A stretch of 64,000 nt of DNA from Blastopirellula marina. Lineage in GTDB: Bacteria; Planctomycetota; Planctomycetia; Pirellulales; Pirellulaceae. The notes beneath the pieces were generated by a model, which worked only from the letters and a program-made list of their open reading frames with translations, was not told the origin of the DNA and did no database searches. Shown here in pieces: positions 5,615-42,346 of this stretch (its first letter is position 1; each line of letters begins with the position of its first letter). The position numbers and the translations under genes are program-made. The stretch lies in contig NZ_PUHY01000005.1 in NCBI RefSeq assembly GCF_002967765.1, forward strand, positions 688,774 through 752,773. Reading direction: 5' to 3'.

Positions 5615-6253
5615 TTATGATTCTCCTTCCTGCACAAGATCAAGAATATAGCCTCTCGCTCCCGCCCCTCGAAACTGCTGTACCCATCGTTCTTTAGGCT
5701 GTTCCTCTAACCACTGGATGGCATGAGGCCCAATCCAAACATTCGGTGCCGGCTTCGAGGGATTCGTCCTAGACCGAGGCAATTCGGTGTTCTGCCAGAT
5801 GAGCTTCGAGTTGCTGTATGTCTTCTTTATGTATTTTCGCAGGTTCTTGAAGCGTCTTTCGATTTGATCCGTAGACGAAGAATCGTGAACTGTTTTTTCT
5901 GTACTTGTCGTGCTGACTGCGATTCTTCCTTCAAACAAGTATGGCTCACCAAATTGAAAGCCAGATCGAAGGAATTGAATTGTCAGATACTCATTGTTGC
6001 AATACCACCATTCCTTGTCCTTCTTCCGATGGTGATCTGCTGTCAGACCAGCTGTCTCTGACGGATTCCAGATCATCAGATAGCTTCCGGCCTTGTCAAT
6101 TTCGGAGCAAATTGGCGGACTTGGCTGATCCCACTTCGGGCCATCCACATACACAACTCCCTGTTCTGAAGTGACGAACCGCGCGAAGTCTTCTTCATCT
6201 TCCGGGTGCATTACAAAACAGACTTCGCTTCTCATTTGATCTTTGCACTCCAC
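5615..6253 (-). CDS. hypothetical protein (low-GC)
   Basis: It is a 212-aa ORF with no recognisable motifs. Its GC content is clearly below the window average. Confidence 0.5.
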   Translation of the reverse strand: MECKDQMRSEVCFVMHPEDEEDFARFVTSEQGVVYVDGPKWDQPSPPICSEIDKAGSYLMIWNPSETAGLTADHHRKKDKEWWYCNNEYLTIQFLRSGFQFGEPYLFEGRIAVSTTSTEKTVHDSSSTDQIERRFKNLRKYIKKTYSNSKLIWQNTELPRSRTNPSKPAPNVWIGPHAIQWLEEQPKERWVQQFRGAGARGYILDLVQEGES

Positions 6254-27043: not shown

Positions 27044-30000
27044 ATGATCGCAGCCCACTGTCCAGATCTTGACGATCTGCAGAAGTATCTTTCTGGTAGA
27101 TTGGATAGCATCGCCGCCGCTGACCTGGAAAGCCACTTAGATCAGTGCGAATCGTGCGAACAAACAATCGATCAGCTCGAAGCCGAGTCCGATTCGATGG
27201 TCGAAGTGTTGCGGAAGTGGAAGTCCTCGGATCGAGTAAGCTCCGTAGATGCTAGTCCAGAAATCGCCGCGGCCCAAGCGTTCTCGGCGAACCTGGCCGA
27301 TCGCCTGAAAGTGGCCAGTCATCTGACAATGGCTACATCGCCGACCATCGGAGCTTATCAACTCATTCGTCTCCTCGGACGTGGTGGGATGGGAGCCGTG
27401 TACCTGGCGCGGCACCGAAACCTCGACAAGCAGGTTGCCATCAAGCTTCTGCCAGCCCTTTCCGCCCAACAACAAGATATTGTCGCCCGTTTTCAACGTG
27501 AGATTCGCGCTTCGGGTCAGCTCGATCACCCTGCGATCGTCCGGGCGACCGATGCTGGCGAAGTTGATGGAATCCATTTCCTGGTGATGGACGCTATCGA
27601 CGGGCTTGATATCGGCCAGGTATGCCGAAATCTTGGACCACTATCGTTTGCCGATGCTTGCGAAATCGCCCGTCAGGCCGCCGTCGGCTTAGCGTATGCC
27701 CATGGAAAAGGGATTGTTCATCGCGACATCAAGCCATCGAACCTCATGCTCGACGAGAACGGCCAGGTGAAGATCTTAGACTTTGGCCTGGCGCAGATGT
27801 CACTGTGGAGTGACGAAGCAACGCAGCTCACGACCGTCGGTCAGTTGATGGGAACGCTCGATTACATGGCCCCTGAACAGGCTGAAGGAAGCGAACTGCC
27901 AGATCAACGGGCCGATATCTATGCCCTGGGTGCAACGCTCTATCGTCTGCTGACTGGCCGCCCTCCCCTGTGGGCTTCCCGGGCAGGAAGTCCGATCGAG
28001 AAGTTACGTCTCATCGCCAGCCACGATCCGCCGCCGATCGAATCCATTCGCGGCGATCTTCCTCCTGCTTTGACGCAGCTCGTGATGCAGATGCTCGCTC
28101 GCGATCCTGAACAAAGGCCGCAGTCGGCGGAGGAAGTCGCCGAGCGTTTGGCTCCGTACTGCGATACGTCAGAACTAAATCGCGTAATTAAGACAGCACG
28201 CGATCAATCTCCGGATGCCGACGGACATTCCGAATCACCCAGCGCGATACCTCGACCTATCAAATCGCAGCCGCCGCACAACATTTGGAAATGGACCACC
28301 CTGGCCGCATGTTTGGCACTGCTAATTCTCGGTGCCCGGTTTACCCTCGACACCTCCAAAGGCCAATTGATCATCGATTCCAAAGACGCCAACCTGCACA
28401 TCCACCTTCGCCGGGATGGACAGGCCTATCGTGACTTGGAAATCCATCCCGGCGTTCAAGTCACTAAGCTATACGGCGGCAATTACGAAATTGTCCTCGA
28501 TCAACCTAGTGATAATATCACCATCTCGCGGAAGAAGTTCAGCATTAGGATGGGGGAAAAACTCATTGCGACGGTTCAGGAAAAGCCTGGAGAAGTGGTC
28601 GCAGTAAACGAGCCCCAACCTGCTGAAAAGCCCGCTGCGGAAGCGGTGAAAGTCACTGCCAAACGTGTGAAAGTTGCCGCGGTCGAAGCAAAGACGGTCA
28701 GGGTTCGTTACCTCTATCTGGGCCGTCTCCAAGAGCGTGCTTTGGGATTCTTGACCCCGAACCGAGATGGCGTAGTCAAGGATTTGAATGTTCACCTTGG
28801 GCAAGAGGTGAAGAAGGGAGACCTGATTGCGGAAGTTGTTTCGGCCGACAACGAGAAAGAAGCTATCCAGGCTCCCTTCGATGCCTTCGTGATTGGGTTG
28901 AAGGTTGCCGAGGGAGACCAGGTGAAAAAGGGAGATATGCTGATGCTGTTATCCGCCAACGGTCCGGCGATCGTCAATTTCGATATTTCTCCAGACGAAC
29001 GTCTGCTGTTTGTGCAAAGCGTACTCAACGGCGATACGAAAATGGAGCTCGTGTTTGAAAAAAACGAGAAGAAGTACGACCACGCGGGAAAGTTGACGAA
29101 GGTTGACGGGAAGGTTGACTCGCATGGAAACATCGAACTGCAAGCCGAATTCCCCAATCCGGAAGGAAAGGTTGGGACGGGAACAAGGGCGTGGATCGAG
29201 ATCAACCCAACGCTCGAAAATGTCACCCTAGTCCCGAAAGAGGCCGTGTTCCGGAGGGACAATCGAACCTGCGTGTTGGTTGTGGACGATCATCAAATCG
29301 CTCACCTGCGTGATGTTACCGTAATGAATCCATGGGAGGATTGCTACGTCATTAAGTCAGGAGTAAGAGTCGGTGAGCAAGTCATCGTTGATGGCATCGA
29401 CCAGGTCCAAGATGGAGAAAAGGTGGTGGCACCTACCACAACAGCCGATCGGCCAGTTGCCAAGACCATCCAAGTCGGAACCGTGGAAGCTCAATCGGTG
29501 ACGATCACCAATCGTTACGTCGGAGAAATTCAGAAGCGAACGGTCGGATACGTTGAGGCGAAAGTGGACGGGACGGTCGATCAAGTTTACGTCACGACAG
29601 GGCAGAAGATCCGCAAGGGAGATTTGATTTTCGAGACCACATCGGCCGAAAGCTCAAGTGATCGTGACACCCCTGCTCAAGACCCCAACAGTGCGATCCA
29701 AGCGCCGTTTGATGGATTCGTCTGGGGCGTGAAATTCAAGAAGGGAGATCGGACCAAAAAAGGAGATAAACTGATCATCCTGTCCGAAGCTGGACCTGGG
29801 GTTGTCGACTTCAACGTTCCGGCGAGTCGACTGGAGGAGATCATCCGGTGGGATTCGAACAACGAGTTAAAGCTGTCCCTGATGTTCTCGAATGGAAAGA
29901 GGTACGACCTGCCTGGAAAGCTGACTACGATCGACGGCGAAGTCGAACTTGCATCTGGAAATGTTCACCTGCAAGCCGAGTTCCCGAACCCTGATGGGAA

Positions 30001-31075
30001 GATGAGCATTGGGCAATCTGCAACGGTGCTTTTGGCACACACCATGAATGATGCCCTGGTCGTTCCACAGCGAGCCACATTCGAGAAAAGTGGCAATCAC
30101 TACGTATTTGTCGTCGACGATCAGGGAATTGCTCATCAACGCGAGATCTTCGTCGAAAGTGAAACGGAAGACAATTTCGTCATCGCCTCTGGTATCCGCC
30201 AAGGCGAGCAGATCGTCTTGGATCGCGTTCGCGAGGTGCGCGACGGGGAGAAAGTTGCGGCATCCATTTCCCAGTTACCCTTCAGCGACCCGGCGAAGGT
30301 TGCCCGCGTCGAATCGAAAACGGTCACCATCGAACATCAGCACGTGGCATTGGTGAGTGGGCCAAAGATTCACAGTATCCCATCACCCGCCAAGGGCCGC
30401 TTCGATAAAAAGTATTCTCGTACTTTTCAGAGCGTCAAAAAAGGAGAACTCCTTTTCACGTTTTCTCCGACGACGGAGGATGGCGAGAATGCGAGTGATT
30501 CCAAAGATTCGATCATTGAGTGCCGAGCTCCGTGCAACGGGATCGTGATCGATCATACAACGCCTGCGAGGCAAGACTTCAACAAGGGAAACATTCTGAT
30601 GAGCGTCACCGAGCATGGTCCGCTAATCGCCGACTTCCATGTAACGGATTCAATACACGAGGCGTACCGAGGACAACGTGATCTGAAGATCGAACTTCAG
30701 TTTGAGGATGGCAAGACCTACGGGGAACTTGGTCAGCTTGAGCCAAACTTCGAAACGCTTAGCGAAACAGCACAAGTCATTATGCATGCCAGCTTCGAGA
30801 ATCGCCGGGGAAGTTCGTTTCACGCGCGGCCTGGAAAGATCCATATCAGCAAAACGTTCAAGGACGCCACGGTCGTTCCCCAACGTGCCACCTTCGAGCA
30901 AGATGGCAAACGGTACCTCTTCGTGGTCGACGATCAAAACGTAGCCCACCGGCGTGAGATTGAAGTCAAGGGCCAAACCGAAGACCAGTTCGTCATTGCG
31001 TCCGGCGTTTCCGAAGGGGAACAGATCGTCGTCGACGATCTTCTGCAAGTGCAAGATGGGCAGAAGTTTCGCTAA
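27044..31075 (+). CDS. Ser/Thr protein kinase with N-terminal anti-sigma zf-HC2 motif, one TM helix and three tandem periplasmic membrane-fusion-protein (HlyD/RND-adaptor-like) modules
   Basis: The zf-HC2 motif is HLDQCESC. The kinase subdomains are VAIK, HRDIKPSNLM, DFGLA and DYMAPE. The TM helix is WTTLAACLALLILGA. Three roughly 275-aa repeats follow. Each has two lipoyl half-motifs (G.v..l.v..G..VkkGDl) and a beta-barrel/MP-domain ending in VVDDq.iAH.R.i.v......i.sGv..GEqiVvd....v.DGeKV. Confidence 0.85.
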   Translation: MIAAHCPDLDDLQKYLSGRLDSIAAADLESHLDQCESCEQTIDQLEAESDSMVEVLRKWKSSDRVSSVDASPEIAAAQAFSANLADRLKVASHLTMATSPTIGAYQLIRLLGRGGMGAVYLARHRNLDKQVAIKLLPALSAQQQDIVARFQREIRASGQLDHPAIVRATDAGEVDGIHFLVMDAIDGLDIGQVCRNLGPLSFADACEIARQAAVGLAYAHGKGIVHRDIKPSNLMLDENGQVKILDFGLAQMSLWSDEATQLTTVGQLMGTLDYMAPEQAEGSELPDQRADIYALGATLYRLLTGRPPLWASRAGSPIEKLRLIASHDPPPIESIRGDLPPALTQLVMQMLARDPEQRPQSAEEVAERLAPYCDTSELNRVIKTARDQSPDADGHSESPSAIPRPIKSQPPHNIWKWTTLAACLALLILGARFTLDTSKGQLIIDSKDANLHIHLRRDGQAYRDLEIHPGVQVTKLYGGNYEIVLDQPSDNITISRKKFSIRMGEKLIATVQEKPGEVVAVNEPQPAEKPAAEAVKVTAKRVKVAAVEAKTVRVRYLYLGRLQERALGFLTPNRDGVVKDLNVHLGQEVKKGDLIAEVVSADNEKEAIQAPFDAFVIGLKVAEGDQVKKGDMLMLLSANGPAIVNFDISPDERLLFVQSVLNGDTKMELVFEKNEKKYDHAGKLTKVDGKVDSHGNIELQAEFPNPEGKVGTGTRAWIEINPTLENVTLVPKEAVFRRDNRTCVLVVDDHQIAHLRDVTVMNPWEDCYVIKSGVRVGEQVIVDGIDQVQDGEKVVAPTTTADRPVAKTIQVGTVEAQSVTITNRYVGEIQKRTVGYVEAKVDGTVDQVYVTTGQKIRKGDLIFETTSAESSSDRDTPAQDPNSAIQAPFDGFVWGVKFKKGDRTKKGDKLIILSEAGPGVVDFNVPASRLEEIIRWDSNNELKLSLMFSNGKRYDLPGKLTTIDGEVELASGNVHLQAEFPNPDGKMSIGQSATVLLAHTMNDALVVPQRATFEKSGNHYVFVVDDQGIAHQREIFVESETEDNFVIASGIRQGEQIVLDRVREVRDGEKVAASISQLPFSDPAKVARVESKTVTIEHQHVALVSGPKIHSIPSPAKGRFDKKYSRTFQSVKKGELLFTFSPTTEDGENASDSKDSIIECRAPCNGIVIDHTTPARQDFNKGNILMSVTEHGPLIADFHVTDSIHEAYRGQRDLKIELQFEDGKTYGELGQLEPNFETLSETAQVIMHASFENRRGSSFHARPGKIHISKTFKDATVVPQRATFEQDGKRYLFVVDDQNVAHRREIEVKGQTEDQFVIASGVSEGEQIVVDDLLQVQDGQKFR
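28640..31075 (+). repeat. three tandem intragenic repeats (~826 bp / ~275 aa each) encoding MFP-like modules
   Basis: The repeat boundaries are at about 28640, 29465 and 30292. They are conserved at protein level. Examples are VKKGDLIAEVVS / IRKGDLIFETTS / VKKGELLFTFSP and the VVDDHQIAHLRDV / VVDDQGIAHQREI / VVDDQNVAHRREI ends. The DNA has diverged. Confidence 0.75.
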
Positions 31076-32874: not shown

Positions 32875-34245
32875 ATGCATATCGCTCGAATTACGATCCT
32901 CACGCCCCCCAACGATCCGCTGGACGACCTAAGCTCCGCGTTTCGTGATGCTGCGCCCGAAAGTAACGTCCAAGTCTTACGCGAAGACCCTGACATCTTG
33001 CGTGAACTTCGCGACCAGGCTGACGACAGCTTGTTCGTGATTCATGGCAGTCGTACTAGTTCCGGGATCGTCACCGCGATGCGGGGGCTTTCGTCGACGG
33101 CGCTCATCGTCATTGCCGCCGATCAAGGAAGCGTCGAGACGGCGGCTTCGGCGATCACTATGGGGGCCAACGACTTCCTGGTTCGTGGCCCGCAACTCAA
33201 CGCCCGCGTAGCGACGTTGCTCGGCAAGATGGGTTACCTCCTGCAGGTGCTGCGCGAGGCCAGGTCGCTTGATGCCGAGAACGAGCGATTGCAGGAAGAG
33301 CTTCACTTCCGCGGGCAGATCATCGGCCAGTCGCCCCAGATCCAGTCGATTGTCCAGCGGATTCGCCTGATAGCGCCCGTTCCTCGGCCCGTGTTAATCG
33401 AAGGCGAACGAGGCACTGGTAAAGAAATGGTCGCCCGCGCAATTCACTTTGCTCATGGCGATCATGCCCGACCGATGGTGACAGTTAATTGCGCGGCGTT
33501 CTCGACCGACTTGCTCGAAAGCGAACTGTTCGGCCACGAAAAAGGTGCCTTCACTGGGGCCGATGAAACACGCGATGGTAAGTTTGGTCAGGCCAGTGGA
33601 GGAACGTTGTTCCTTGACGAGATCGGCCACATGTCGCTGCCGTTTCAGCGAAAGATTTTACGCGTGGTCGAGTACGGTACGTATAACCGCGTCGGCGGTC
33701 GTAACGAGCTGCATACCACGGCCCGCATCATCGCCGCAACAAACGTCGACCTGCGTAAGCAGATTAGCGAAGGTGAATTCCTCAGCGACCTTTACGACCG
33801 TCTAGCGTTCGAGGTCATCGAAGTGCCACCCCTGCGTGAACGCGAAGGGGATATCGAAGTCCTCGCCCAGCATTTCCTAGATCAATTCGCCAAAGAGATT
33901 CCCCTGTTCGCCGGTAAGAAGCTGGCCCGCTCGGCGATCGAAGTGCTCCGAAAGTACCGCTTCCCTGGCAATGTTCGGGAATTGAAGAACATCATCGAAC
34001 GCGCCGCGTATCGCGACACGACGGACGAGATCACTCCCGACGACATCGGTATGCTGGCCGCTACCCCGCCGGAAATCCCGGGCGGCAGTTTCAAAGAACG
34101 GCTCGACAACTTCTGCCGCTTAATGCTCAGCGAAGCCATGTCCCAAACCCAAAACAACCAAGCCGCCGCCGCCCGAGAACTAGGCCTCAGTTATCACCAG
34201 TTCCGTTACTACTACGGGAAGTACCTGACTGAGCAAACGGACTGA
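32875..34245 (+). CDS. sigma-54-dependent transcriptional activator (NtrC family) with atypical receiver-like N-terminus
   Basis: The AAA+ motifs are GERGTGKEMVARAIH, ESELFGHEKGAFTGA (GAFTGA) and GTLFLDEIGHM, plus GNVRELKNIIERA. There is a C-terminal HTH. The N-terminal domain lacks an obvious phospho-acceptor Asp. Confidence 0.85.
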   Translation: MHIARITILTPPNDPLDDLSSAFRDAAPESNVQVLREDPDILRELRDQADDSLFVIHGSRTSSGIVTAMRGLSSTALIVIAADQGSVETAASAITMGANDFLVRGPQLNARVATLLGKMGYLLQVLREARSLDAENERLQEELHFRGQIIGQSPQIQSIVQRIRLIAPVPRPVLIEGERGTGKEMVARAIHFAHGDHARPMVTVNCAAFSTDLLESELFGHEKGAFTGADETRDGKFGQASGGTLFLDEIGHMSLPFQRKILRVVEYGTYNRVGGRNELHTTARIIAATNVDLRKQISEGEFLSDLYDRLAFEVIEVPPLREREGDIEVLAQHFLDQFAKEIPLFAGKKLARSAIEVLRKYRFPGNVRELKNIIERAAYRDTTDEITPDDIGMLAATPPEIPGGSFKERLDNFCRLMLSEAMSQTQNNQAAAARELGLSYHQFRYYYGKYLTEQTD

Positions 34246-34255
34246 CCTCTCGATT

Positions 34256-34275
34256 TGGTGGCACCCAGCACGCGT
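34256..34275 (+). promoter_or_regulatory. candidate sigma-54 promoter (TGGCAC-N5-ACGCG; GG-N10-GC)
   Basis: The -24 box TGGCAC is perfect at 34259..34264. GC lies at 34272..34273 with the correct 10-nt spacing. The -12 box is weak (ACGC instead of TTGC). It is 140 bp upstream of the TetR gene and directly downstream of the NtrC-like regulator gene. Confidence 0.3.
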
Positions 34276-34415
34276 CCGGTGCATTCTTCGTCCGCAATTC
34301 TCATGAAATTGCTTTTTTCTGCGAAACCAACGCGCTCAGCCAGGGGTTTGTATCAGTGTTGCGTATCGGTCGGGCGCCCGACTAATCGTGCTAAGTGACA
34401 AATGGATAATGGGTT

Positions 34416-35003
34416 ATGTCTTCTTCTAGAGCTCCCAAGGTCTCTCGTTTCGACACAATCATCGCCGCTGCGGCAACACTATGCGCGCAGAAGGGAATCG
34501 CCGAAACGAGTCTTCGCGAAATTGCGACCGAGGCTAAGGTTTCCAATGGAACACTTCACTATTACTTCCCAAGCAAGGACGAATTAATTGAGAAGTTGAT
34601 TCTCTCGGCGGTCGAACCGTTAGGACGCCGGGCGGCGGAAATCGCGCAGAGCGAAGAAGATCCGTTTGATCAGCTTCGACAGATTGTCGATTTGTCGTTC
34701 GGCTTGTTCGACGACGATTGGGATCTCTATTACGTCGCGTTGCAATTAGGCGACCGGGTGCACGTTCGCCTGGCCGAACGTTTTCCCACCGCAACAAACG
34801 CGATGCAGCAAGTGATCGAGCGTGGTCAGCAATTGGGTGTCATGCGCAACGACGATCCCTTGCTTTTGGCTATTGAGTGTCACGGCGTGATGATGCGCGT
34901 TGCCCGTGCGCTAACTTTCGGTGAATTGACACCACCACTACGACGCTTCGTCGAGCCAGTCTCGGAAACGTATCGTCGAATTCTGCAAATCTCTTCCCCC
35001 TAA
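34416..35003 (+). CDS. TetR/AcrR-family transcriptional regulator
   Basis: The HTH is SLREIATEAKVSNGTLHYYFPSKDELI. Confidence 0.85.
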   Translation: MSSSRAPKVSRFDTIIAAAATLCAQKGIAETSLREIATEAKVSNGTLHYYFPSKDELIEKLILSAVEPLGRRAAEIAQSEEDPFDQLRQIVDLSFGLFDDDWDLYYVALQLGDRVHVRLAERFPTATNAMQQVIERGQQLGVMRNDDPLLLAIECHGVMMRVARALTFGELTPPLRRFVEPVSETYRRILQISSP

Positions 35004-35026
35004 AAAAGTTTGTTCGGAGACACGCG

Positions 35027-37936
35027 ATGCCTCGTTCTCTTCCTCCATTCGCGGCTGCCATGGGTGGTGCGATTCTGGTAGCGGCCCTCCTGGCTTCAAC
35101 CGCTGTCGCTCAAAACGAACCACCGGTTTGTTACGACTTGGAAAAAATGCCCAATCAGGTCGCCCGCCGCGTGACGCCGGTCAAGCCATTCGAGATCATG
35201 GACGGTGTCTATTATGTCGGCAACTCGGCCGTTTCGTGCCATCTTCTGACAAGTGAAGACGGTTTGATCTTGATTGACTCGACCTTTCCCCACACGGTTT
35301 CGATGCTAATAGATAGCATTCGCCAGCTTGGATTTGCGCCAAGCGACGTGAAGTTGGTAATCGCGACACATGCGGCGATCGATCACTCGGGAGGAGCGTG
35401 GTATTTTCAGAAAGTATTTGGCTCAAAGGTGTGGATACAAGAAGCCGACGCGACAGCGGCCGCGAATGCCTTGTGTGTCGGTGGAAAAAAGGTTGACTTA
35501 AGTGAGGTTCGTGCTTCCGAGGCGTATCCACCCTTCCAAGCAGATCGGCTGATTAAAGAGAAAGAAACAATTGATTGGGGAGGACGTCAGTTCACATTTC
35601 GTCGCACGCCACTAGCGACCGAAGGAACGATGGCGATCGAATGGCCATTACATTCCTCCGACGGCAAAACAGTGAAAGCGGGCCTGATCGGTGGCATCGC
35701 TAATCGAGTAGGCGACGCTCAACTGACCGTCCAGCGTTTGAAGGAAATGCGCGATATCGAAGTCTGGCTGGCCGTTCATCCCAATCAAAACAAGACCTTT
35801 GAGAAGGCGAATCGCCTTGATGCCGGCAAATTGGCCAACCCATTCGTCGATCCTTCTGGCTGGAACCAGTTTGTCGATCGCATCGTGGGGATGATGAGTT
35901 CCGAGCGGCCGACTCGTCGTCGTGATAACACAGACATGCGTCAACGGCAGCGCCCGATGAATCCAAGCCGCTCACCGGCCAGCGCAAGTAACGGACGCGT
36001 GCCAAACAAGAACATCGACAAACTCGATCGCGCGTGGCTCGATCCCGATACAACCGCTCCAGCACCGACTATCTACAAAACGTTCCGTAGTCAAACGATT
36101 CGGCAGGACGTCAGCTATTTGATCTACCTTCCGCCCGATTACCAGCAGCAATCGTCTCAGCGTTACCCAGTCATCTATTGGTTACACGGTACCGGCGGCA
36201 AGCAAAGCCGAGGGGCTGACCTGGCGAACCTCTTAGACGAGCAGATCCGGGCTGGAAAAATGCCGCCGATGATCATGGTTCTCGTTAACGGATTGCGAGG
36301 CACGACCCTCTATTGCGATTCGGCAGACGGAAAGTGGCCTCTTGAATCGGTGATCGTAAACGACCTGATACCGCATATCGACACCTCCTACCGCACGCAC
36401 GCTCGCCGCGAGGCACGGGCGATCGAGGGGTTCTCGATGGGAGGTTTCGGCGCGGCGCACCTCGGTTTCCAATATCCTGAAACGTTCGGCGTGATATCGA
36501 TCCTCGATCCCGCATTTCTTACTGGACTCGATCCTAACGCGGCGCCCCATCCAACTTGGCAGGGGCAAATCGATTTTGCTCTTGGCGGCGATGCAAAACG
36601 ATATCAGGCCAACAACCCATTCGTGTTGTTGGGCAAGAATGCCGACAAGTTACGTGGACGAACGACCATTCGTTTGGTGCCTCGGGCGAAAGGAAACACG
36701 CAAGGATTTCTAGCGAAGTGTGACGAGTTGCATGCGATGCTCGACCAACACAAAATCGCCCATACTTACGATCCGCGCCGTGACGTTGCGATCCATAACC
36801 CAAACGTCTTGTACGAGGCATTAGGAGAGCAGGGATTCGCATTTTTCAAATCCGCGTTTCAATTGACGCCACCCGCAGGCAAACAGACCGCCAGAAGCGA
36901 AATAGCTTGGAGAAAGCTACCCGATTGTTCATTCGGATATGAAACTGAGTACGCAGGAAAAAATGGGACACCAATCGCCGCTTACCTGCGTAAACCTGCC
37001 GGCGATGGGCCGTTTCCGCTGGTCGTCATGTTGCATGGGGGTGGCAGTTCCACCACCGGTACGATGAGCCTGGGACGATCGCAGCAGTCACCTACGGCCA
37101 ATTTCATCGAGCAAGGCTGGGCGGTCTATTCAATTGATTTTCGCCGTCGATCCGAATTTCAACCGATTGAATGGGACGATGCGATTGCCGCGGTTGAAAA
37201 CGCGAAGCAGTTTTCGTTCATCGATCCAACGCGGATTGCGATGATTGGCGGTAGCCATGGAGGTCACAATACGCTGCGGATTGCGGCGCGCCACGGCCTA
37301 AGCTGCGCCATCGCGTGTGCGCCCCCAGCGATCAATTTGGAAGAAGTTGCCAAGGCCAAAGCTGCCGGTTATCAACTGAGTCCCGCTCTCGAAAGGGTTT
37401 TGGCAGGTGGCAATCCAACGCCTGGTCCCACAATATTTGAAGAGGCCAGCAAACTACGATGTCCACTGCTGCTGGTTAGCGGAAAAAATGACTGGAGTTC
37501 TCCGCCCAATGTCATCGAGGCGTATGTCAAGGTGCTGGAGAAAGCGAAACGGGAGGTCGAGGTCTATATGCCCGAGAACGGACCGCATGGGTTTTATTTC
37601 GGTAGTCCACGAAATGCCGAGACGGATGAAGCGGCTCGCCGTGCCGTGGCCTTTATCTCGAAACACTTTGAGATGCCGCTGAAACCATCGAATTCGCCCC
37701 CTTTGTCCGCCGCTCCTGGTCGGGTCAATAATAGCCTCCGCTTGCCACCTGCCGAACAAGTGAATCGTGTCTTTTTACGCCTCGACCTGAATAAAGACGG
37801 CACGGTCGATCGGCAGGAAGCTGACAACCAGCCGGGACGACGACTGATCGCGACGTTTGATCGGAACGGCGATGGCAGCGTCACTCGCAGCGAGATACAG
37901 GAGGTGTTCGCATCCTCAAAGCCATCCAGTCGATAA
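35027..37936 (+). CDS. multidomain secreted hydrolase: metallo-beta-lactamase fold + esterase (PF00756-like) + S9/DLH-type alpha/beta hydrolase + C-terminal EF-hand pair
   Basis: There is a signal peptide. The MBL motif is HAAIDHSGG. The esterase has YPVIYWLHGTGGK and GFSMGG. The second hydrolase has GPFPLVVMLHGGG and GGSHGG. The two canonical EF loops are DLNKDGTVDRQE and DRNGDGSVTRSE. It starts 24 bp after the TetR gene. Confidence 0.75.
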   Translation: MPRSLPPFAAAMGGAILVAALLASTAVAQNEPPVCYDLEKMPNQVARRVTPVKPFEIMDGVYYVGNSAVSCHLLTSEDGLILIDSTFPHTVSMLIDSIRQLGFAPSDVKLVIATHAAIDHSGGAWYFQKVFGSKVWIQEADATAAANALCVGGKKVDLSEVRASEAYPPFQADRLIKEKETIDWGGRQFTFRRTPLATEGTMAIEWPLHSSDGKTVKAGLIGGIANRVGDAQLTVQRLKEMRDIEVWLAVHPNQNKTFEKANRLDAGKLANPFVDPSGWNQFVDRIVGMMSSERPTRRRDNTDMRQRQRPMNPSRSPASASNGRVPNKNIDKLDRAWLDPDTTAPAPTIYKTFRSQTIRQDVSYLIYLPPDYQQQSSQRYPVIYWLHGTGGKQSRGADLANLLDEQIRAGKMPPMIMVLVNGLRGTTLYCDSADGKWPLESVIVNDLIPHIDTSYRTHARREARAIEGFSMGGFGAAHLGFQYPETFGVISILDPAFLTGLDPNAAPHPTWQGQIDFALGGDAKRYQANNPFVLLGKNADKLRGRTTIRLVPRAKGNTQGFLAKCDELHAMLDQHKIAHTYDPRRDVAIHNPNVLYEALGEQGFAFFKSAFQLTPPAGKQTARSEIAWRKLPDCSFGYETEYAGKNGTPIAAYLRKPAGDGPFPLVVMLHGGGSSTTGTMSLGRSQQSPTANFIEQGWAVYSIDFRRRSEFQPIEWDDAIAAVENAKQFSFIDPTRIAMIGGSHGGHNTLRIAARHGLSCAIACAPPAINLEEVAKAKAAGYQLSPALERVLAGGNPTPGPTIFEEASKLRCPLLLVSGKNDWSSPPNVIEAYVKVLEKAKREVEVYMPENGPHGFYFGSPRNAETDEAARRAVAFISKHFEMPLKPSNSPPLSAAPGRVNNSLRLPPAEQVNRVFLRLDLNKDGTVDRQEADNQPGRRLIATFDRNGDGSVTRSEIQEVFASSKPSSR

Positions 37937-38067
37937 TGCTTGGGCAAGTAGGTCCTCGTTTCGAAGTCGTTCAAACACGTGACACAAACGAGCGTAGCTG
38001 TACAATCGCGGTTGGCAAGATGCAAACATGCCGTCTTTTCACGCGATACCACGGCGACTCAACCACA

Positions 38068-39288
38068 ATGAACCTTCCCAGTGAGATGCAAACTCGGCTG
38101 AATCGTAAACCTTTCCGGGTTCCTCAACGTTTGATCGAGCTGGGCGTCGTGTTGGTGATCATGGTTCTGATGATTGCGATACCGAATTGGTATTTCAGCT
38201 GGCGAGGCGGTCAGGCTGCGAAGGAACACGTGCCGATCGTGCAAGCGATTGTGAACTACCGAGCAGAAACGGGCTTATTGCCTTATACGCTGGACGATTT
38301 ACAACGGCGATTCCCCGTGGATATCCCAGAAGGGGTTGGTTGGTCGAATAGCGGTTCGACTGGTTCGCTGTATATCTTCTCCGGCATTCGCATCAGCTAC
38401 GAATTCGATGAAGGGAACTACGAAGGTTGGCATGGCGGCTTTGCGAACGTATCGCTTCCCAGAGTCACACCCACGGTAAGCGTAGTCACCGGACAGCAGC
38501 GTGTGGAAGCCGCGCTAGCCGAATACGATCGGCGTATCGCAGATTATCAGGAAGAGGAAAACAATCGCCGCATTCGAACGGCCAAGATGGCCATGTTGTT
38601 TTCTCTTGGCCGAAGCGATGATCTGCACGCCGAGTGCCTGGCGGCAAGGAAAGTCTATCCCGATTGGTGGCGGGCCCAATACGGCGCGGTGAAGTTCTCA
38701 GCCGATATTTACCGCGCCGAGCACGAAAGAGCGTTGACGGCTTGGGTCGAGCGTTCGCCGGGATTCGTTCACTCGTGGTATCTGGCGAACTACCTGCGAG
38801 AAGAAGGTCGACATGCAGAAGCTCTTGCCGCGATTAAGAAAGGATCTGAGCACCCACTCACTAGTCTCGATGACGATGCGACCTGGGTTCCGCATGCATT
38901 CGCGTTCGACGCTGCCACCTACGCGTGTCAGCAAAACGCGCCAAACGTCGCCTTGGCTGTCTGCGATTCCTGGAGCCGACCTGAGGGTGTGTACGACTAT
39001 CCCAGCAAAGACCTGCCTGCGTTTCGTGCTGCGGCACTGCTACAGCTCGGCCAGATCGAGGAAGCAAAATCTGCCATTGCCAAAGTCTTGGCGGCGGAAA
39101 AGAAGAGTCGCTTGTGGGCTGGCAATCTCGATCAGCTTCACGCCGCCATCAAACGGGGTGATCGAGAGTATATCTACGACCCAGGCCAAGTGTACGAAGG
39201 TTTCGGCCAGTGGAAGCTGTTCCCTCCGCCCGAGTTTCAACCCGCTGAGACCAACCCACCGGTCGCGGCCCCTTCGTCGTCTGATTGA
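38068..39288 (+). CDS. hypothetical membrane-anchored protein
   Basis: The six-frame ORF starts at 37936, overlapping the previous stop. The Met at 38068 or 38020 are plausible alternatives. Both precede a TM helix (LIELGVVLVIMVLMIAIPNWYF). No catalytic motif was found. Confidence 0.5.
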   Translation: MNLPSEMQTRLNRKPFRVPQRLIELGVVLVIMVLMIAIPNWYFSWRGGQAAKEHVPIVQAIVNYRAETGLLPYTLDDLQRRFPVDIPEGVGWSNSGSTGSLYIFSGIRISYEFDEGNYEGWHGGFANVSLPRVTPTVSVVTGQQRVEAALAEYDRRIADYQEEENNRRIRTAKMAMLFSLGRSDDLHAECLAARKVYPDWWRAQYGAVKFSADIYRAEHERALTAWVERSPGFVHSWYLANYLREEGRHAEALAAIKKGSEHPLTSLDDDATWVPHAFAFDAATYACQQNAPNVALAVCDSWSRPEGVYDYPSKDLPAFRAAALLQLGQIEEAKSAIAKVLAAEKKSRLWAGNLDQLHAAIKRGDREYIYDPGQVYEGFGQWKLFPPPEFQPAETNPPVAAPSSSD

Positions 39289-39388
39289 GCCGGCGAAAGT
39301 CTGAGCAAATTGGTGGCAATGGACGCTCGATCGGGGTATCCTCGTACCATCCTGTCATCTTGTCGCACGGCACCCAGCCCCAAGGAGT

Positions 39389-42346
39389 TTGCTTGTGTCA
39401 TTCCAGCTACGTCGATCGACGTTGATGGTCGCGTTGTTATTTCTTTTGGCTCCGGCGCAGCTCGCTTCGGCCGAGCATTTAGAAACCTTCGAGCTCCAAG
39501 CGACGCGCTCTCCCAGCTTTCAAGAGATGCTGATCGACGAAACGGGGACTCCGTGGGTTCTGGCGGGTGGACTGGTGCAATACTTCGACGGCAAGCAGTT
39601 CATCGCGCTCGATTCGGAAGTCGTTCGCTCCGGCAGCTACACCTCAGGTCTCTATGGCGGTCCGGATCGTGGCGTTTTTCTCACCCAAACGAGCAAGAAT
39701 CCTCAAGAGGGAATCGTTTATCGCCTGCGGGACGGTAACTGTGAAGAGATAACCACGTTCTTTTACGAGGTCGGGCACGAGAAGCCAGGCGTTTACGTTT
39801 CGAAGAATGGACGGATCTTCAACTGGGGAACGACCTTCCTGGCGGTGTTTGATGGCCAGCATTGGAAGCGGATCGAAGGCGAGTTCCATCGGAAAGCAGG
39901 CTACTATCGTCCTGAGATCTGCGATTTGGGAGACGAAGTTTATCTCTACTCGGCCATGGATAATCGTGTTTACCACTGCGATGCCGACAGTATCCTTTCA
40001 GCGAAGGATGGGCCAGAGGAAGTTGGTAAGGCAATCGCCGCCCACAACCAGCGATCGCAATATCCCGTTCCGCCCATGACGTGCAGTTGGAATGGCGATC
40101 GGGTGATCATCACACTTGACCGGTCACCGCGACCATTCGCGTTCAACGTTCGCACGAATGAAATCATCGAGTTGAGTCTTGTCCCGGAAGAGGGCCAGCC
40201 GCGGAGTTACGCCGACTTTATGGAATGTCGTGATGGCTCGGTCCTCATGTTGGCGCGAATCTCAGGGATTCATCAGTTCGCCTTGTGTCGACTTGACGTC
40301 GATGGCAAAGTACGCGAGTTGCCCGGCTCGCGGATTATTCCCTGGAGCAATGCACGACTACGGATGTTTCCGAAGTCGATCCTGGAAGCGAGTGACGGCT
40401 CTATCGTTGTCGGCTTACCTGAATTTGGAATCGCCCTTTATCATGACGGCAAGCTAACCACATACGATGCCAATTATGGGCTGTTCACCCCAGTGAATGT
40501 CGTCGTGGAAGGACCCACAGGCGAGGTATGGTTCCCACATGATCGACGCGGTCATCAAGTCGCGCGGATGAAGCTTGGCCAGCCGTTAGAACCCATTCAA
40601 GAAATTGCCGAGGATTGGAAGGAGTTCAAACTGGTAAGTCGGAGCCGTTTGTGGCAGCTTACCGACGATACGCTCGCGATGTTCGAAGTCGAACACAACA
40701 ACCAAATGACCCGCCGCACCGGGGATCAAGTCACCTATCAGCCAGTCCCCTTCAAACCGGAAGAGACCCAAGGCTCGATTGTCGATGACCGAGGCCATCT
40801 GATTCTCGAAAGCTTCCGGTCAGCTGCTTTCGACGTGGGGCCCGATGGGGTCGAAGAATATGAATCGATTCAAGATGCCTTGGTTGCCGCCGTCGCCGCA
40901 GGCGCGAAACAGTTCGATCCCTCGCCTGAATTCTCTGGGGTAGTTCTGACCGAAAACGGGGAACTGTGGTACGGCAAGCATAACGATCGTCGCGTATTCT
41001 GGCGGGAGGGTGACAAGTGGAAGGAGGCTCGCTTTCAAGATGACGTTTACCATCTGTTTGAAACCGACGAAGGTGTGCTAATTAGAACCCAAGGAGGAAG
41101 TCTTTACCGACCTGTTGACGGGCGAATGGTCAAGGATCCAGAGGCGCTCCGATCGGGGCCGCCGTTGATGCTAGGACCGAAAGAGTTCCAGCCCCTCGAC
41201 GAGCAACTGATCGAAGCTCACCCAGGCCGCTACTATCCGGTCCGCCAAGTCGAAGGCGAGATGCGCGTGTTTTATGACTTAGCGGCGTACCATCGGTCGT
41301 TCCAGTCGGCCGTTATTGCGAAGTTGGCGATGAACTCATTCCCTTTACCCAACTATTACGGTCGCGTAATTGAGTCGCGTCACGAGGGAGCGTGGCTGCT
41401 CATGTCGCACGGCGGAAGTCAGCCGTATCGTATCTTTCGTGATCGAATGGTCCAACTCGACCTGAATGGGACACCGTTAGCCGCCCAAAACGTGCGTGAG
41501 ATCCTGGAGGCCGCCAATGGCGACGTCTGGTTCACCACGTACTATGGCGACCATCCCCGAGCCCTTCGTTTGTCCGCTTCGCAACTTAAGATCGAAGCAC
41601 CACCAATCGATCAGCGGGTCGGCCGTGAAATGCAGCTTGCCATTGAAGTAAAACCGACACGGCTGAAAGATAAGATCGAGTTGTTCACCACGGTCAACGG
41701 AGTTCGACAAGAGGTAACTCCGACCGACGACGACAAGATCTTGTTTCGCTTTCCTCATGCGGGCACGTATCAATGTTCGGTCGGCGCGATCTGGCTAGGG
41801 GCAATCCAGCCGAAACTCCTTGAGTTTGAAGTGGAAGCCGCTTTCGAGATGCCTGAGACGAATTGGACCAGCACCGAGCAGCCTTACACGATTCAAACCA
41901 CCAAGTGGGGCCCGCCAGTTCAAGTGATCCCCACGCAAGCGAGCAGGCAAACAGCGCTTGAATGGCGCGTCGCTGGCGAGCCGTGGCAGAAGATTCAACC
42001 GACGCAGCCGATTGATTTCTCGTACTTATCGCCCGGCGATTACGACATGGAACTGCGGGGCGTGGAAGATCGCTTCTGGTACGATCCAACACCCGTGCAC
42101 GTGAAGGTGAAGTATTCCCCGGACTACTTTGCAATCGTCCATGAACTGGCCATGCGACTTGGTTCGCCCCATGCGGAGGAACGTCGCCAGGCGGCCCAAC
42201 AATTGGAAGCCCTCGGCCCAGCAGCCTTGCCCGAACTTCGCCGCGAGATCAAAGCCAGCGAAGGAGATCAACAAATCGTACCGACCTTGCGGAACGTCTT
42301 GGAACGCATCGAACGAAATTCCAAACCGCAGAACGACGCTAACTAG
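39389..42346 (+). CDS. large secreted beta-propeller-like protein with C-terminal HEAT-like repeat
   Basis: There is a signal peptide (MVALLFLLAPAQLASA). It has repeated G.vWf / GelWyG units (GEVWFPHD, NGELWYGKH, NGDVWFTTYYG) reminiscent of two-component-regulator propeller repeats. The C-terminus (EERRQAAQQLEALGPAALPELRREI) looks HEAT-like. Confidence 0.5.
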   Translation: MLVSFQLRRSTLMVALLFLLAPAQLASAEHLETFELQATRSPSFQEMLIDETGTPWVLAGGLVQYFDGKQFIALDSEVVRSGSYTSGLYGGPDRGVFLTQTSKNPQEGIVYRLRDGNCEEITTFFYEVGHEKPGVYVSKNGRIFNWGTTFLAVFDGQHWKRIEGEFHRKAGYYRPEICDLGDEVYLYSAMDNRVYHCDADSILSAKDGPEEVGKAIAAHNQRSQYPVPPMTCSWNGDRVIITLDRSPRPFAFNVRTNEIIELSLVPEEGQPRSYADFMECRDGSVLMLARISGIHQFALCRLDVDGKVRELPGSRIIPWSNARLRMFPKSILEASDGSIVVGLPEFGIALYHDGKLTTYDANYGLFTPVNVVVEGPTGEVWFPHDRRGHQVARMKLGQPLEPIQEIAEDWKEFKLVSRSRLWQLTDDTLAMFEVEHNNQMTRRTGDQVTYQPVPFKPEETQGSIVDDRGHLILESFRSAAFDVGPDGVEEYESIQDALVAAVAAGAKQFDPSPEFSGVVLTENGELWYGKHNDRRVFWREGDKWKEARFQDDVYHLFETDEGVLIRTQGGSLYRPVDGRMVKDPEALRSGPPLMLGPKEFQPLDEQLIEAHPGRYYPVRQVEGEMRVFYDLAAYHRSFQSAVIAKLAMNSFPLPNYYGRVIESRHEGAWLLMSHGGSQPYRIFRDRMVQLDLNGTPLAAQNVREILEAANGDVWFTTYYGDHPRALRLSASQLKIEAPPIDQRVGREMQLAIEVKPTRLKDKIELFTTVNGVRQEVTPTDDDKILFRFPHAGTYQCSVGAIWLGAIQPKLLEFEVEAAFEMPETNWTSTEQPYTIQTTKWGPPVQVIPTQASRQTALEWRVAGEPWQKIQPTQPIDFSYLSPGDYDMELRGVEDRFWYDPTPVHVKVKYSPDYFAIVHELAMRLGSPHAEERRQAAQQLEALGPAALPELRREIKASEGDQQIVPTLRNVLERIERNSKPQNDAN

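Follow-up and report, generated by a model that had tools for sequence, protein, structure and literature searches.

The locus described here lies in a 64-kb stretch of planctomycete DNA (64,000 nucleotides, positions 688,774 to 752,773 of contig NZ_PUHY01000005.1, RefSeq assembly GCF_002967765.1), which is called the window below. Its subject is a gene for a TetR-family regulator followed on the same strand by a gene for a 969-aa hydrolase of several domains, with an operator-like palindrome in front of both. Positions are those of the window; homologous loci and proteins are referred to by numbers preceded by L and P. The features in question are these:

34366..34381, no strand: predicted TetR operator, the near-perfect palindrome TCGGTCGGGCGCCCGA, with a perfect 14-nt core GTCGGGCGCCCGAC at 34369-34382, about 35 nt before the tetR ATG
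34416..35003, forward strand: TetR/AcrR-family regulator, 195 aa, WP_105328993.1, PF00440
35016..35019, forward strand: Shine-Dalgarno GGAG of the hydrolase gene, read from the sequence, within the 23-nt spacer between tetR and the hydrolase gene
35027..37936, forward strand: hydrolase gene, 969 aa, start ATG, uninterrupted, WP_105328994.1
35027..35110, forward strand: predicted Sec signal peptide, residues 1-28, cleavage between AVA and QN as judged by eye
35114..35905, forward strand: B3-like domain of the metallo-beta-lactamase (MBL) fold, residues 30-293
35906..36046, forward strand: linker 1, disordered and basic, residues 294-340
36047..36865, forward strand: PF00756/CE1-like serine esterase domain, residues 341-613, with Ser470, His590 and the probably relocated acid Asp494
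36902..37696, forward strand: S9/DLH/BD-FAE-like serine hydrolase domain without beta-propeller, residues 626-890, with Ser743, Asp822 and His854
37748..37915, forward strand: EF-hand pair, residues 908-963, with predicted calcium loops 920-931 and 945-956

The 969-aa product is an exact match to the NCBI protein WP_105328994.1/PQO37745.1, encoded on an 876-kb contig and listed by RefSeq as a MULTISPECIES entry. The names found on this entry are 'MBL fold metallo-hydrolase' (Bremerella cremea), 'EF-hand domain-containing protein' and 'alpha/beta hydrolase-fold protein' (Pirellulaceae). An intact allele, 98% identical, is present on at least 8 independent metagenome contigs with unchanged neighbours, and for these two alleles the ratio of nonsynonymous to synonymous substitution (dN/dS) is 0.19 over the whole gene, no segment that allowed a calculation reaching 1. 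It could be argued that so long a reading frame is an artefact of mis-assembly, or of a lost stop codon joining separate genes, and in Blastopirellula marina (L005) the same modules are indeed held by two adjacent genes, MBL-esterase (702 aa) and S9-EF (368 aa), parted by TAG, 1 nt and ATG. However, the S9-EF protein of B. marina has its own signal peptide, as does MBL-esterase, and for this reason the split is considered genuine, whereas the window protein lacks the internal signal peptide of the split gene; still larger fusions are known from other lineages. An artificial fusion is effectively refuted by the identical NCBI entry, the intact alleles and the dN/dS value, and it can be said that this explanation is hardly credible.

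By eye the N-terminus, MPRSLPPFAAAMGGAILVAALLASTAVA followed by QN, reads like a Sec signal peptide, and the AlphaFold2 (AF2) model has a lone helix of low confidence there (residues 7-29). The model of the whole protein was built from a 34-sequence alignment limited to colinear domain orders (mean predicted local distance difference test, pLDDT, 80; predicted template modelling score, pTM, 0.42). It comprises three confident globular domains (~30-293, 341-613 and 626-890) with disordered linkers between them, disorder being predicted at 294-326 (pLDDT <50), 614-625 and from 891 onward, and the predicted layout is thus one of beads on a string. All Pfam matches quoted for the hydrolase exceed the curated cutoffs. 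A first-pass annotation, made from the sequence letters, had placed an intact reading frame at 35027-37936 and had assigned to it an MBL domain, a PF00756 esterase with the motif GFSMGG, an S9/DLH-type hydrolase with GGSHGG and two EF loops; the deposited sequence, the Pfam run and the positions of the motifs agree with it. Its fear that the N-terminal region might not be MBL-like is not borne out, as a domain search gives Lactamase_B there. Its phrase 'three different hydrolase folds' is wrong, since there are only two folds according to AF2 and Foldseek: one MBL and two alpha/beta-hydrolases of different families.

The middle domain is matched by Pfam Esterase (PF00756, residues 355-544, E 2.2e-20, 73.9 bits against a cutoff of 22), with the nucleophile elbow GFSMGG at residue 468, and the columns of S470 and H590 are more than 90% conserved in 140 homologous domains. 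Its nearest solved structures are feruloyl esterases of Bacteroides and Clostridium (BT_4077 7xrt, 8z91, 6rzo and XynZ 1jjf; E 1e-16 to 1e-23; Foldseek target TM-score, TMt, ~0.8); the sequence match to them spans the N-terminal 160 residues, and the likeness fades in the C-terminal half. The usual catalytic acid of homologs is an Asp or Glu after strand beta7, in a 'G..D' or 'H.ED' setting. In the window protein and in P0001, P0003 and P0006 the corresponding loop (552-558) reads PRAKGNT, with no acid and with Gly in the canonical acid column. Relocation of the catalytic acid is known in alpha/beta-hydrolases. All 7 domains that have an Asp right after beta6 (SILD494) are without an acid in the beta7 loop (the four proteins just named and 3 domains in which this loop is deleted), as against 0 of the 133 others with an Asp at this place. 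It is therefore probable that the acid was shifted from the post-beta7 to the post-beta6 position and that the triad Ser470-His590-Asp494 is intact.

The third domain is matched by Pfam Peptidase_S9 (PF00326, residues 715-882, E 5.6e-13, 49.3 bits against a cutoff of 22.6), and the BD-FAE, DLH, AXE1 and Abhydrolase models overlap this match (~658-882). The BD-FAE match (PF20434, 41.4 bits against 26.8, E 1.5e-10) spans just profile positions 8-104 of 215. The elbow GGSHGG lies at residue 741, and all of 97 homologous domains keep the triad Ser743, Asp822 and His854. Modelling of residues 626-969 by AF2 gave a mean pLDDT of 87 and a pTM of 0.77, and the Foldseek neighbours of the domain, all at about 20% identity, are dienelactone hydrolase 3f67, esterases and lipases of the HSL family, a ferulic acid esterase of Lactobacillus buchneri and S9 catalytic domains. 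No beta-propeller was found by Pfam or in the AF2 model, the domain beginning at ~626 directly after a disordered linker; because an N-terminal propeller is missing, it is not classed as a peptidase of the prolyl oligopeptidase type, and the most fitting label for it is that of a serine carboxylesterase from the S9/DLH/BD-FAE neighbourhood. Ser and His being kept in both alpha/beta domains, ester hydrolysis, which the first-pass annotation had listed among the possible activities, is the best-supported chemistry of the protein.

Behind the third domain there are two loops of 12 residues, DLNKDGTVDRQE (920-931) and DRNGDGSVTRSE (945-956), both of the canonical form DxNxDGxxxxxE. Pfam EF-hand_1 is matched at residues 939-963 (E 2e-7, 30.5 bits against a cutoff of 25.4), EF-hand_5 scores 30.7 against 25.9, and EF-hand_6 is also above its cutoff. 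In the AF2 model the tail forms two helix-loop-helix units with a short beta bridge, so that the two canonical EF loops suspected earlier are recovered by sequence, Pfam and model, and the tail is a classical EF-hand pair for which binding of Ca2+ is predicted. A type I dockerin was considered and rejected: there is no Pfam Dockerin match at E <= 0.01, the loops stand 25 residues apart as against duplicated segments of ~22 residues, and AF2 gives an EF pair. The pair follows the S9 domain in only 10 of 97 homologs; in the clade associated with the MBL domain the two move together as one piece. The pair belongs to the S9 module, which it would probably stabilise or anchor with Ca2+.

The first domain requires special attention. 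Pfam Lactamase_B (PF00753) is matched at residues 67-207 (E 6.5e-14, 52.8 bits against a cutoff of 22.7), the domain is modelled with a pLDDT of ~95, and Foldseek places it next to the B3 enzymes FEZ-1 and BJP-1 (TMt ~0.8, E ~5e-21). By sequence it matches BJP-1 (3lvz) with E 3.6e-24, and its identity to B3 structures is 24-30%. The active-site motif is HAA/DHH, that is H115, A117 and A197 with D119, H120 and H251, which are positions 116, 118 and 196 with 120, 121 and 263 in standard class B beta-lactamase (BBL) numbering; in the alignment with BJP-1, THAAIDH stands opposite THAHLDH and TPLATEG opposite TPGHSPG. Thus two of the three ligands of the Zn1 (alpha) site are replaced by Ala (H118A, H196A) and His116 is retained, while the Zn2 (beta) site Asp120-His121-His263 is complete and its residues D119, H120 and H251 are invariant in the clade. 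In a motif census of the 152 nearest domains the full HHH/DHH site was found in 130, and the pattern H-[A/G]-D-H-[A/S/G]-H in exactly 10, all of one subclade. A sister subclade (P0002, P0007, P0008, P0009, P0035 and P0123) carries the full site. In the degenerate subclade W150C, G227R and G249A were fixed too, which makes Cys150 and Arg227 invariant, and the MBL clade has further invariant residues of its own (C35, H72, H89 and a C-terminal NPF(V/I)DPxGW).

The family is small. An exhaustive HMMER search of 1.84 billion representative proteins with this domain gave ~8 clusters (at 50% identity) with E < 1e-70, followed by a sharp drop in score to generic B3-like proteins of ~35% identity, in keeping with the earlier remark that the domain combination is unusual. 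A profile search of contigs with the MBL-clade alignment, whose 42 loci do not include the window's own genome or B. marina, gave 2 close-clade loci, both in metagenome-assembled genomes (MAGs) of Verrucomicrobiota, and otherwise generic B3-like loci of <=36% identity. The MBL domains of the window and of its 98% allele differ at 5 synonymous sites and at 0 nonsynonymous ones; identity of the domain to its B. marina ortholog is 65%, close to the 67-73% of the esterase domains. As judged from these comparisons, the loss of Zn1 ligands has become fixed in a small clade on which purifying selection acts, and the domain is not decaying. Among the generic B3-like proteins P0125, P0127 and P0144 have MBL domains in 2-4 tandem copies, in which full-site copies alternate with altered motifs, for example HGHADK.

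What the domain does can be approached by asking first whether the whole protein inactivates antibiotics or signals, as a beta-lactamase or a lactonase (quorum quencher) joined to deacylases of the 'cephalosporin-C-deacetylase-like' kind, induced through TetR for the breakdown of beta-lactams or N-acyl-homoserine lactones. The solved structures nearest to the N-terminal domain are B3 beta-lactamases without exception, the S9 domain has a weak likeness to CE7 cephalosporin C deacetylases (E 8e-7), and elsewhere in the wider family there are fusions of B3-like domains with beta-lactamase domains of class A or class C (P0157, P0185). Some B3 enzymes are reported to cleave homoserine lactones as well (PMC7392888). 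However, the CE7 likeness is generic to acetyl-xylan esterases, and against the NCBIfam model of subclass B3 (NF033105) the window domain scores 144.1 bits, under the curated cutoff of 240; relatives with the full zinc site score just 150-169 bits, so that the entire clade, canonical members included, stays at 144-169. The described active B3 variants are HHH/DHH, QHH/DHH, EHH/DHH and HRH/DQK (PMC7381538); HAA/DHH is outside this list. The alpha site belongs to the HHH/DHH motif by which B3 sites are defined, and no described variant loses two alpha ligands (PMC7381538). Since the alpha site is destroyed, the score is below the cutoff and the fusion partners and neighbours of relatives are related to glycans, a beta-lactamase or lactonase is unlikely on the sequence evidence, and the reading of the whole protein as an antibiotic- or signal-inactivating enzyme is very improbable. 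The lactams proposed by the first-pass annotation fall with the score of 144 against 240 and with the missing Zn1 ligands His118 and His196.

Another explanation is that the domain is a pseudoenzyme, a non-catalytic binding or scaffold module comparable to a carbohydrate-binding module (CBM), which targets the two serine esterases while these perform all the catalysis. This would suit the replacement of Zn1 ligands by small residues that do not coordinate metal (A117 and A197, fixed in 10 clade members with G or S as alternatives), the gain of the invariant Arg227 and Cys150, the strong conservation of the domain, and its terminal position, typical of binding modules and always beside the esterase domain. 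Nevertheless a pure binding module has no need of the Zn2 ligands D119, H120 and H251 and of H115, all of which are invariant, and the sisters with a full HHH/DHH site in the same architectures (P0002, P0007, P0008, P0009 and P0035) imply an ancestral catalytic role. It is also generally known that mono-zinc MBLs, those of subclass B2, are active enzymes, which speaks against the pseudoenzyme as well. A module wholly devoid of catalysis is thus regarded as possible but somewhat unlikely. Most likely the MBL domain serves on the same substrate as the esterases, as an accessory hydrolase with one metal or as a module that binds the substrate, two options which the available sequences do not separate. 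A bolder and rather doubtful proposal, offered tentatively, is that the HAA/DHH domain stands for a functional class, not described so far, of MBL-fold proteins related to B3. Such a domain would hydrolyse with one metal in the beta site only, possibly assisted by Arg227, or would bind a ligand, and it would have evolved together with the two serine esterases and their own TetR and operator into a portable 'de-esterification cassette' of Planctomycetota and Verrucomicrobiota. If this were true, the HAA/DHH clade, together with the full-site sisters that have the same architectures, would reveal that B3-like MBLs have a native task unrelated to antibiotics, namely the breakdown of decorated natural polymers.

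The association of the modules does not depend on their order. In relatives the arrangements S9-EF-Est-MBL (P0007, P0011), the same with a C-terminal extension (P0008/P0009, 1480 aa), S9-Est-Est-MBL (P0002), Est-MBL (P0035) and MBL-Abhydrolase_3-Est-S9 (P0006) were found, Est being the PF00756-type domain, next to the divided set of B. marina; Est+S9 proteins of two domains and ~610 aa are abundant in metagenomes in both orders. Elsewhere the esterase modules are fused to GH42, to GH29 alpha-fucosidase, to SGNH/GDSL esterase and to a 3-keto-disaccharide-hydrolase/beta-helix region, and in the wider B3-like family MBL domains are joined to pectin acetylesterase, secretory lipase, GDPD and serine beta-lactamase domains. 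Sulfatases, GH32, GH38 and GH4 surround P0006 and P0009, and the locus of P0008/P0009 (L008) is flanked by five sulfatases and GH32. The occurrence of the same modules in varied orders and in split genes, behind an orthologous TetR and operator, is strong Rosetta-stone evidence that the three hydrolase modules serve one substrate. The extension of P0008/P0009 (residues ~990-1480, L008:8001-12443) comprises ~500 aa after the MBL domain; it has no Pfam match at E <= 0.001 and contains a motif 'FEIGNEV' like that of clan-A glycosidases.

The regulator is a clear member of its family (PF00440, E 1.8e-16, 60.1 bits against a cutoff of 24), and a search of NCBIfam returned no equivalog at its cutoff. 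The first-pass annotation was right that a tetR gene adjoins the hydrolase gene, but the gap is 23 nt (35004-35026), not 24. No terminator-like site was found between the two genes, and from the short spacer with its Shine-Dalgarno sequence we infer their co-transcription. Scans of 34100-39500 for sigma-70 promoters and intrinsic terminators gave counts at chance level, and Rfam detected no riboswitch or other RNA element at E <= 1 in the 170 nt upstream of tetR. The palindrome in this region was spotted by eye, the automatic inverted-repeat finder having missed it; an alignment and a pattern search then confirmed it. The window has no second copy, nor any other match with fewer than 3 mismatches. 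In an alignment of the regions upstream of tetR from 4 divergent loci there is a single invariant block, TCGG(T/G)CG(G/T)GCGCCCGAC, some 35-50 nt before the start codon, the rest being unconserved, and the palindrome TCGGnCGnGCGCCCGA precedes the orthologous tetR in 6 loci (the window, L005, L008, L010, L053 and L054). This phylogenetic footprint is a strong argument for regarding the palindrome as the operator of TetR, and tetR with the hydrolase gene as an autoregulated operon.

Orthologous regulators, 49-73% identical over the full length with the ligand-binding half included, stand directly upstream of the enzyme in the window, B. marina (L005), L008/L009 (P0009) and L010 (P0002), and a TetR of 43% identity precedes P0035 in L055. 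The TetR linkage suggested by the first-pass annotation is therefore found again in at least 6 divergent loci, with 43-73% identity. The locus of Blastopirellula sp. JC732 (L054, 5951-10690) has a TetR of 70% identity and the same operator, followed by S9-EF (66% identical to that of the window), a full-length esterase of the BD-FAE family (E 7.5e-25) and a sulfatase, with neither MBL nor PF00756; it follows that the S9-EF module, not the MBL domain, is the most constant partner of this TetR.

On these grounds the following mechanism can be proposed. A TetR repressor would bind the conserved palindrome in front of its own gene in a two-gene autoregulated operon of the order operator-tetR-hydrolase, and would be released by a small-molecule ligand, probably a product or fragment of the substrate, whereupon both genes are transcribed. 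The enzyme would be exported by the Sec route as a string of domains. Its two independent serine carboxyl-esterase domains, the CE1/feruloyl-esterase-like PF00756 domain and the S9/DLH/BD-FAE-like one, would be the working parts. Between them they would most likely remove ester substituents of different kinds (acetyl, feruloyl or other acyl groups), and their targets would be decorated glycans or related natural polyesters. The EF-hand pair may confer Ca2+-dependent stability or anchoring on the S9 module, and the MBL domain may act on the same substrate, either as a mono-metal accessory hydrolase through its beta site or as a binding module. The substrate is most plausibly a decorated glycan, acetylated, feruloylated or otherwise acylated and possibly sulfated, because the relatives of the middle domain are feruloyl esterases, the partners are glycoside hydrolases, SGNH and BD-FAE, and the neighbourhoods of relatives hold sulfatases and glycoside hydrolases. 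There is no pointer to the xenobiotics named in the first-pass annotation, the fusion partners and neighbours of relatives being carbohydrate-active (GH42, GH29, SGNH, BD-FAE, sulfatases, GH32/38/92). To a ligand-derepressed operon for a secreted multi-esterase acting on esterified glycans or phenolic esters we assign a probability of about 55%.

Several observations weigh against this proposal. The window neighbourhood has no cluster of carbohydrate-active enzymes (CAZymes), but a sigma-54 activator, an SPFH protein, uncharacterised proteins and a GH13 gene 5 kb away, and the genomic contexts of two S9-Est homologs (P0051, P0042) are uninformative. Two loci, L007 and L011, carry the enzyme with no detectable TetR. 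Conversely, in L053 (6001-8337) a TetR of 58% identity and the operator TCGGTCGTGCGCCCGA at 6006 stand before an unrelated 552-aa PEP-CTERM protein, for which no Pfam or PDB relative was found, and therefore the regulon is not strictly esterase-specific. In the same locus GH92 lies upstream and a sulfotransferase downstream, and the annotated tetR start is probably overextended across the operator. The triad with the relocated acid in the middle domain rests on covariation and predicted secondary structure. Finally, TetR regulators sense lipophilic or aromatic small molecules more typically than sugars; a phenolic or fatty acid product would agree with this range but is not proved by it.

A further rival reading is a polyester or lipid depolymerase, by which cutin or suberin, polyhydroxyalkanoate, wax or lipid esters would be degraded and the freed fatty or hydroxy acids sensed by TetR. 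Among the partial NCBIfam matches that reach the ligand-binding domain of TetR, FadR, a fatty-acid regulator of Bacillus, ranks first (E 1.3e-13, well short of the cutoff), structural neighbours of the S9 domain include lipases, HSL-family esterases and a PETase, a fusion of B3-like MBL with secretory lipase is known (P0262), and the PHB-depolymerase family PF10503 is matched by some relatives (P0101). On the other hand, the middle domain is nearest to feruloyl esterases of xylan side chains, the fusion partners are glycoside hydrolases, SGNH and BD-FAE, and the sulfatase-rich neighbourhoods point to glycans. A depolymerase of this kind is possible but less supported than an esterase of decorated glycans, and it is considered unlikely.

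The other genes around the operon are listed for completeness. Directly upstream lies the sigma-54-dependent activator (32875..34245, forward strand; AAA+ Sigma54_activat, AAA_lid_14 and HTH_8), whose N-terminal ~148 residues match no Pfam family, and further upstream a 1343-aa open reading frame (ORF) (27044..31075, forward strand), which on the 98%-identical contig L001 is annotated with the odd mix of a Ser/Thr protein kinase and RND MFP/YknX_C/beta-barrel domains. Downstream, the annotated start of a 450-aa ORF (37936..39288, forward strand; weak TPR matches only) overlaps the stop of the hydrolase gene by 1 nt. Its real start may be near 38068, as suggested by a transmembrane helix after Met45 and a sigma-70-like site (37979-38006), and the ORF is not conserved beside the module in other lineages. 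It is followed by a 985-aa ORF (39389..42346, forward strand), which has only a sub-threshold Reg_prop repeat in Pfam and is conserved in the 98% strain.

Every part of the system comes from a known superfamily, and the protein is already deposited under generic names; literature searches found no study of WP_105328994.1 or of its architecture. What is unusual is an HAA/DHH clade related to B3 and kept under selection, the obligate tie of this MBL clade to two esterase modules, whether shuffled, fused or split, and a TetR and operator dedicated to it that are conserved across Planctomycetota; close-clade loci of the enzyme occur in MAGs of Verrucomicrobiota as well. Labels such as 'MBL fold' or 'class B beta-lactamase' on planctomycete proteins of this sort should not be counted as resistance genes. 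B3 relatives that lack the alpha zinc site and are nevertheless selected should be useful for the study of active-site divergence in MBLs and of their roles outside the clinic. One repressor, one operator and one secreted enzyme also make a compact, tractable system for the discovery of inducer and substrate, and possibly an inducible switch for Planctomycetota.

Compared with known systems, the regulator follows the paradigm of TetR, QacR and AcrR: an N-terminal helix-turn-helix, ~195 aa, a palindrome (here of 16 bp) upstream of its own gene and an adjacent target, divergent or co-directional in the paradigm, which in the window lies immediately downstream and is a secreted hydrolase and not an efflux pump. 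With the B3 beta-lactamases BJP-1, FEZ-1 and L1 the first domain shares the alpha-beta/beta-alpha fold and the equivalents of H116, D120, H121 and H263, but its clade is separate, small and fused or linked to esterases and TetR. The B3-RQK enzymes (SPR-1/CSR-1) are likewise a lineage with replaced metal ligands; they alter one alpha and two beta ligands, and B3-Q/E only position 116, whereas the window domain loses two alpha ligands (PMC7381538). The middle domain has the fold, the GxSxG elbow and the His after beta8 in common with CE1-type feruloyl and acetyl-xylan esterases (7xrt, 5vol Bacint_04212, 1jjf; E 1e-16 to 1e-21 over the N-terminal 160 residues), which carry Asp or Glu after beta7 where the window domain has none, with Asp after beta6 instead. 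The third domain shows the Ser-Asp-His order and the GGSHGG elbow of the S9 prolyl-oligopeptidase/DLH group (structural matches 3f67 and 5yp1) without the beta-propeller of S9 prolyl oligopeptidases, and is ~20% identical to any solved structure. Fused multi-catalytic carbohydrate esterases have been described as CE6-CE1 acetyl-feruloyl esterases of Bacteroidetes (PMC7110780) and as BD-FAE (PF20434; PMC8165983), and these fusions, like the window protein, join two distinct esterase domains on one secreted polypeptide. The third domain of the window protein matches the BD-FAE profile over positions 8-104 of 215, and in Blastopirellula sp. JC732 the TetR operon includes a gene for a full-length BD-FAE. 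The CE6-CE1 and BD-FAE enzymes belong to polysaccharide utilization loci (PULs) of Bacteroidetes under control of the SusR/HTCS type and have no MBL domain, EF-hand pair or TetR, all three of which accompany the esterases in the window.

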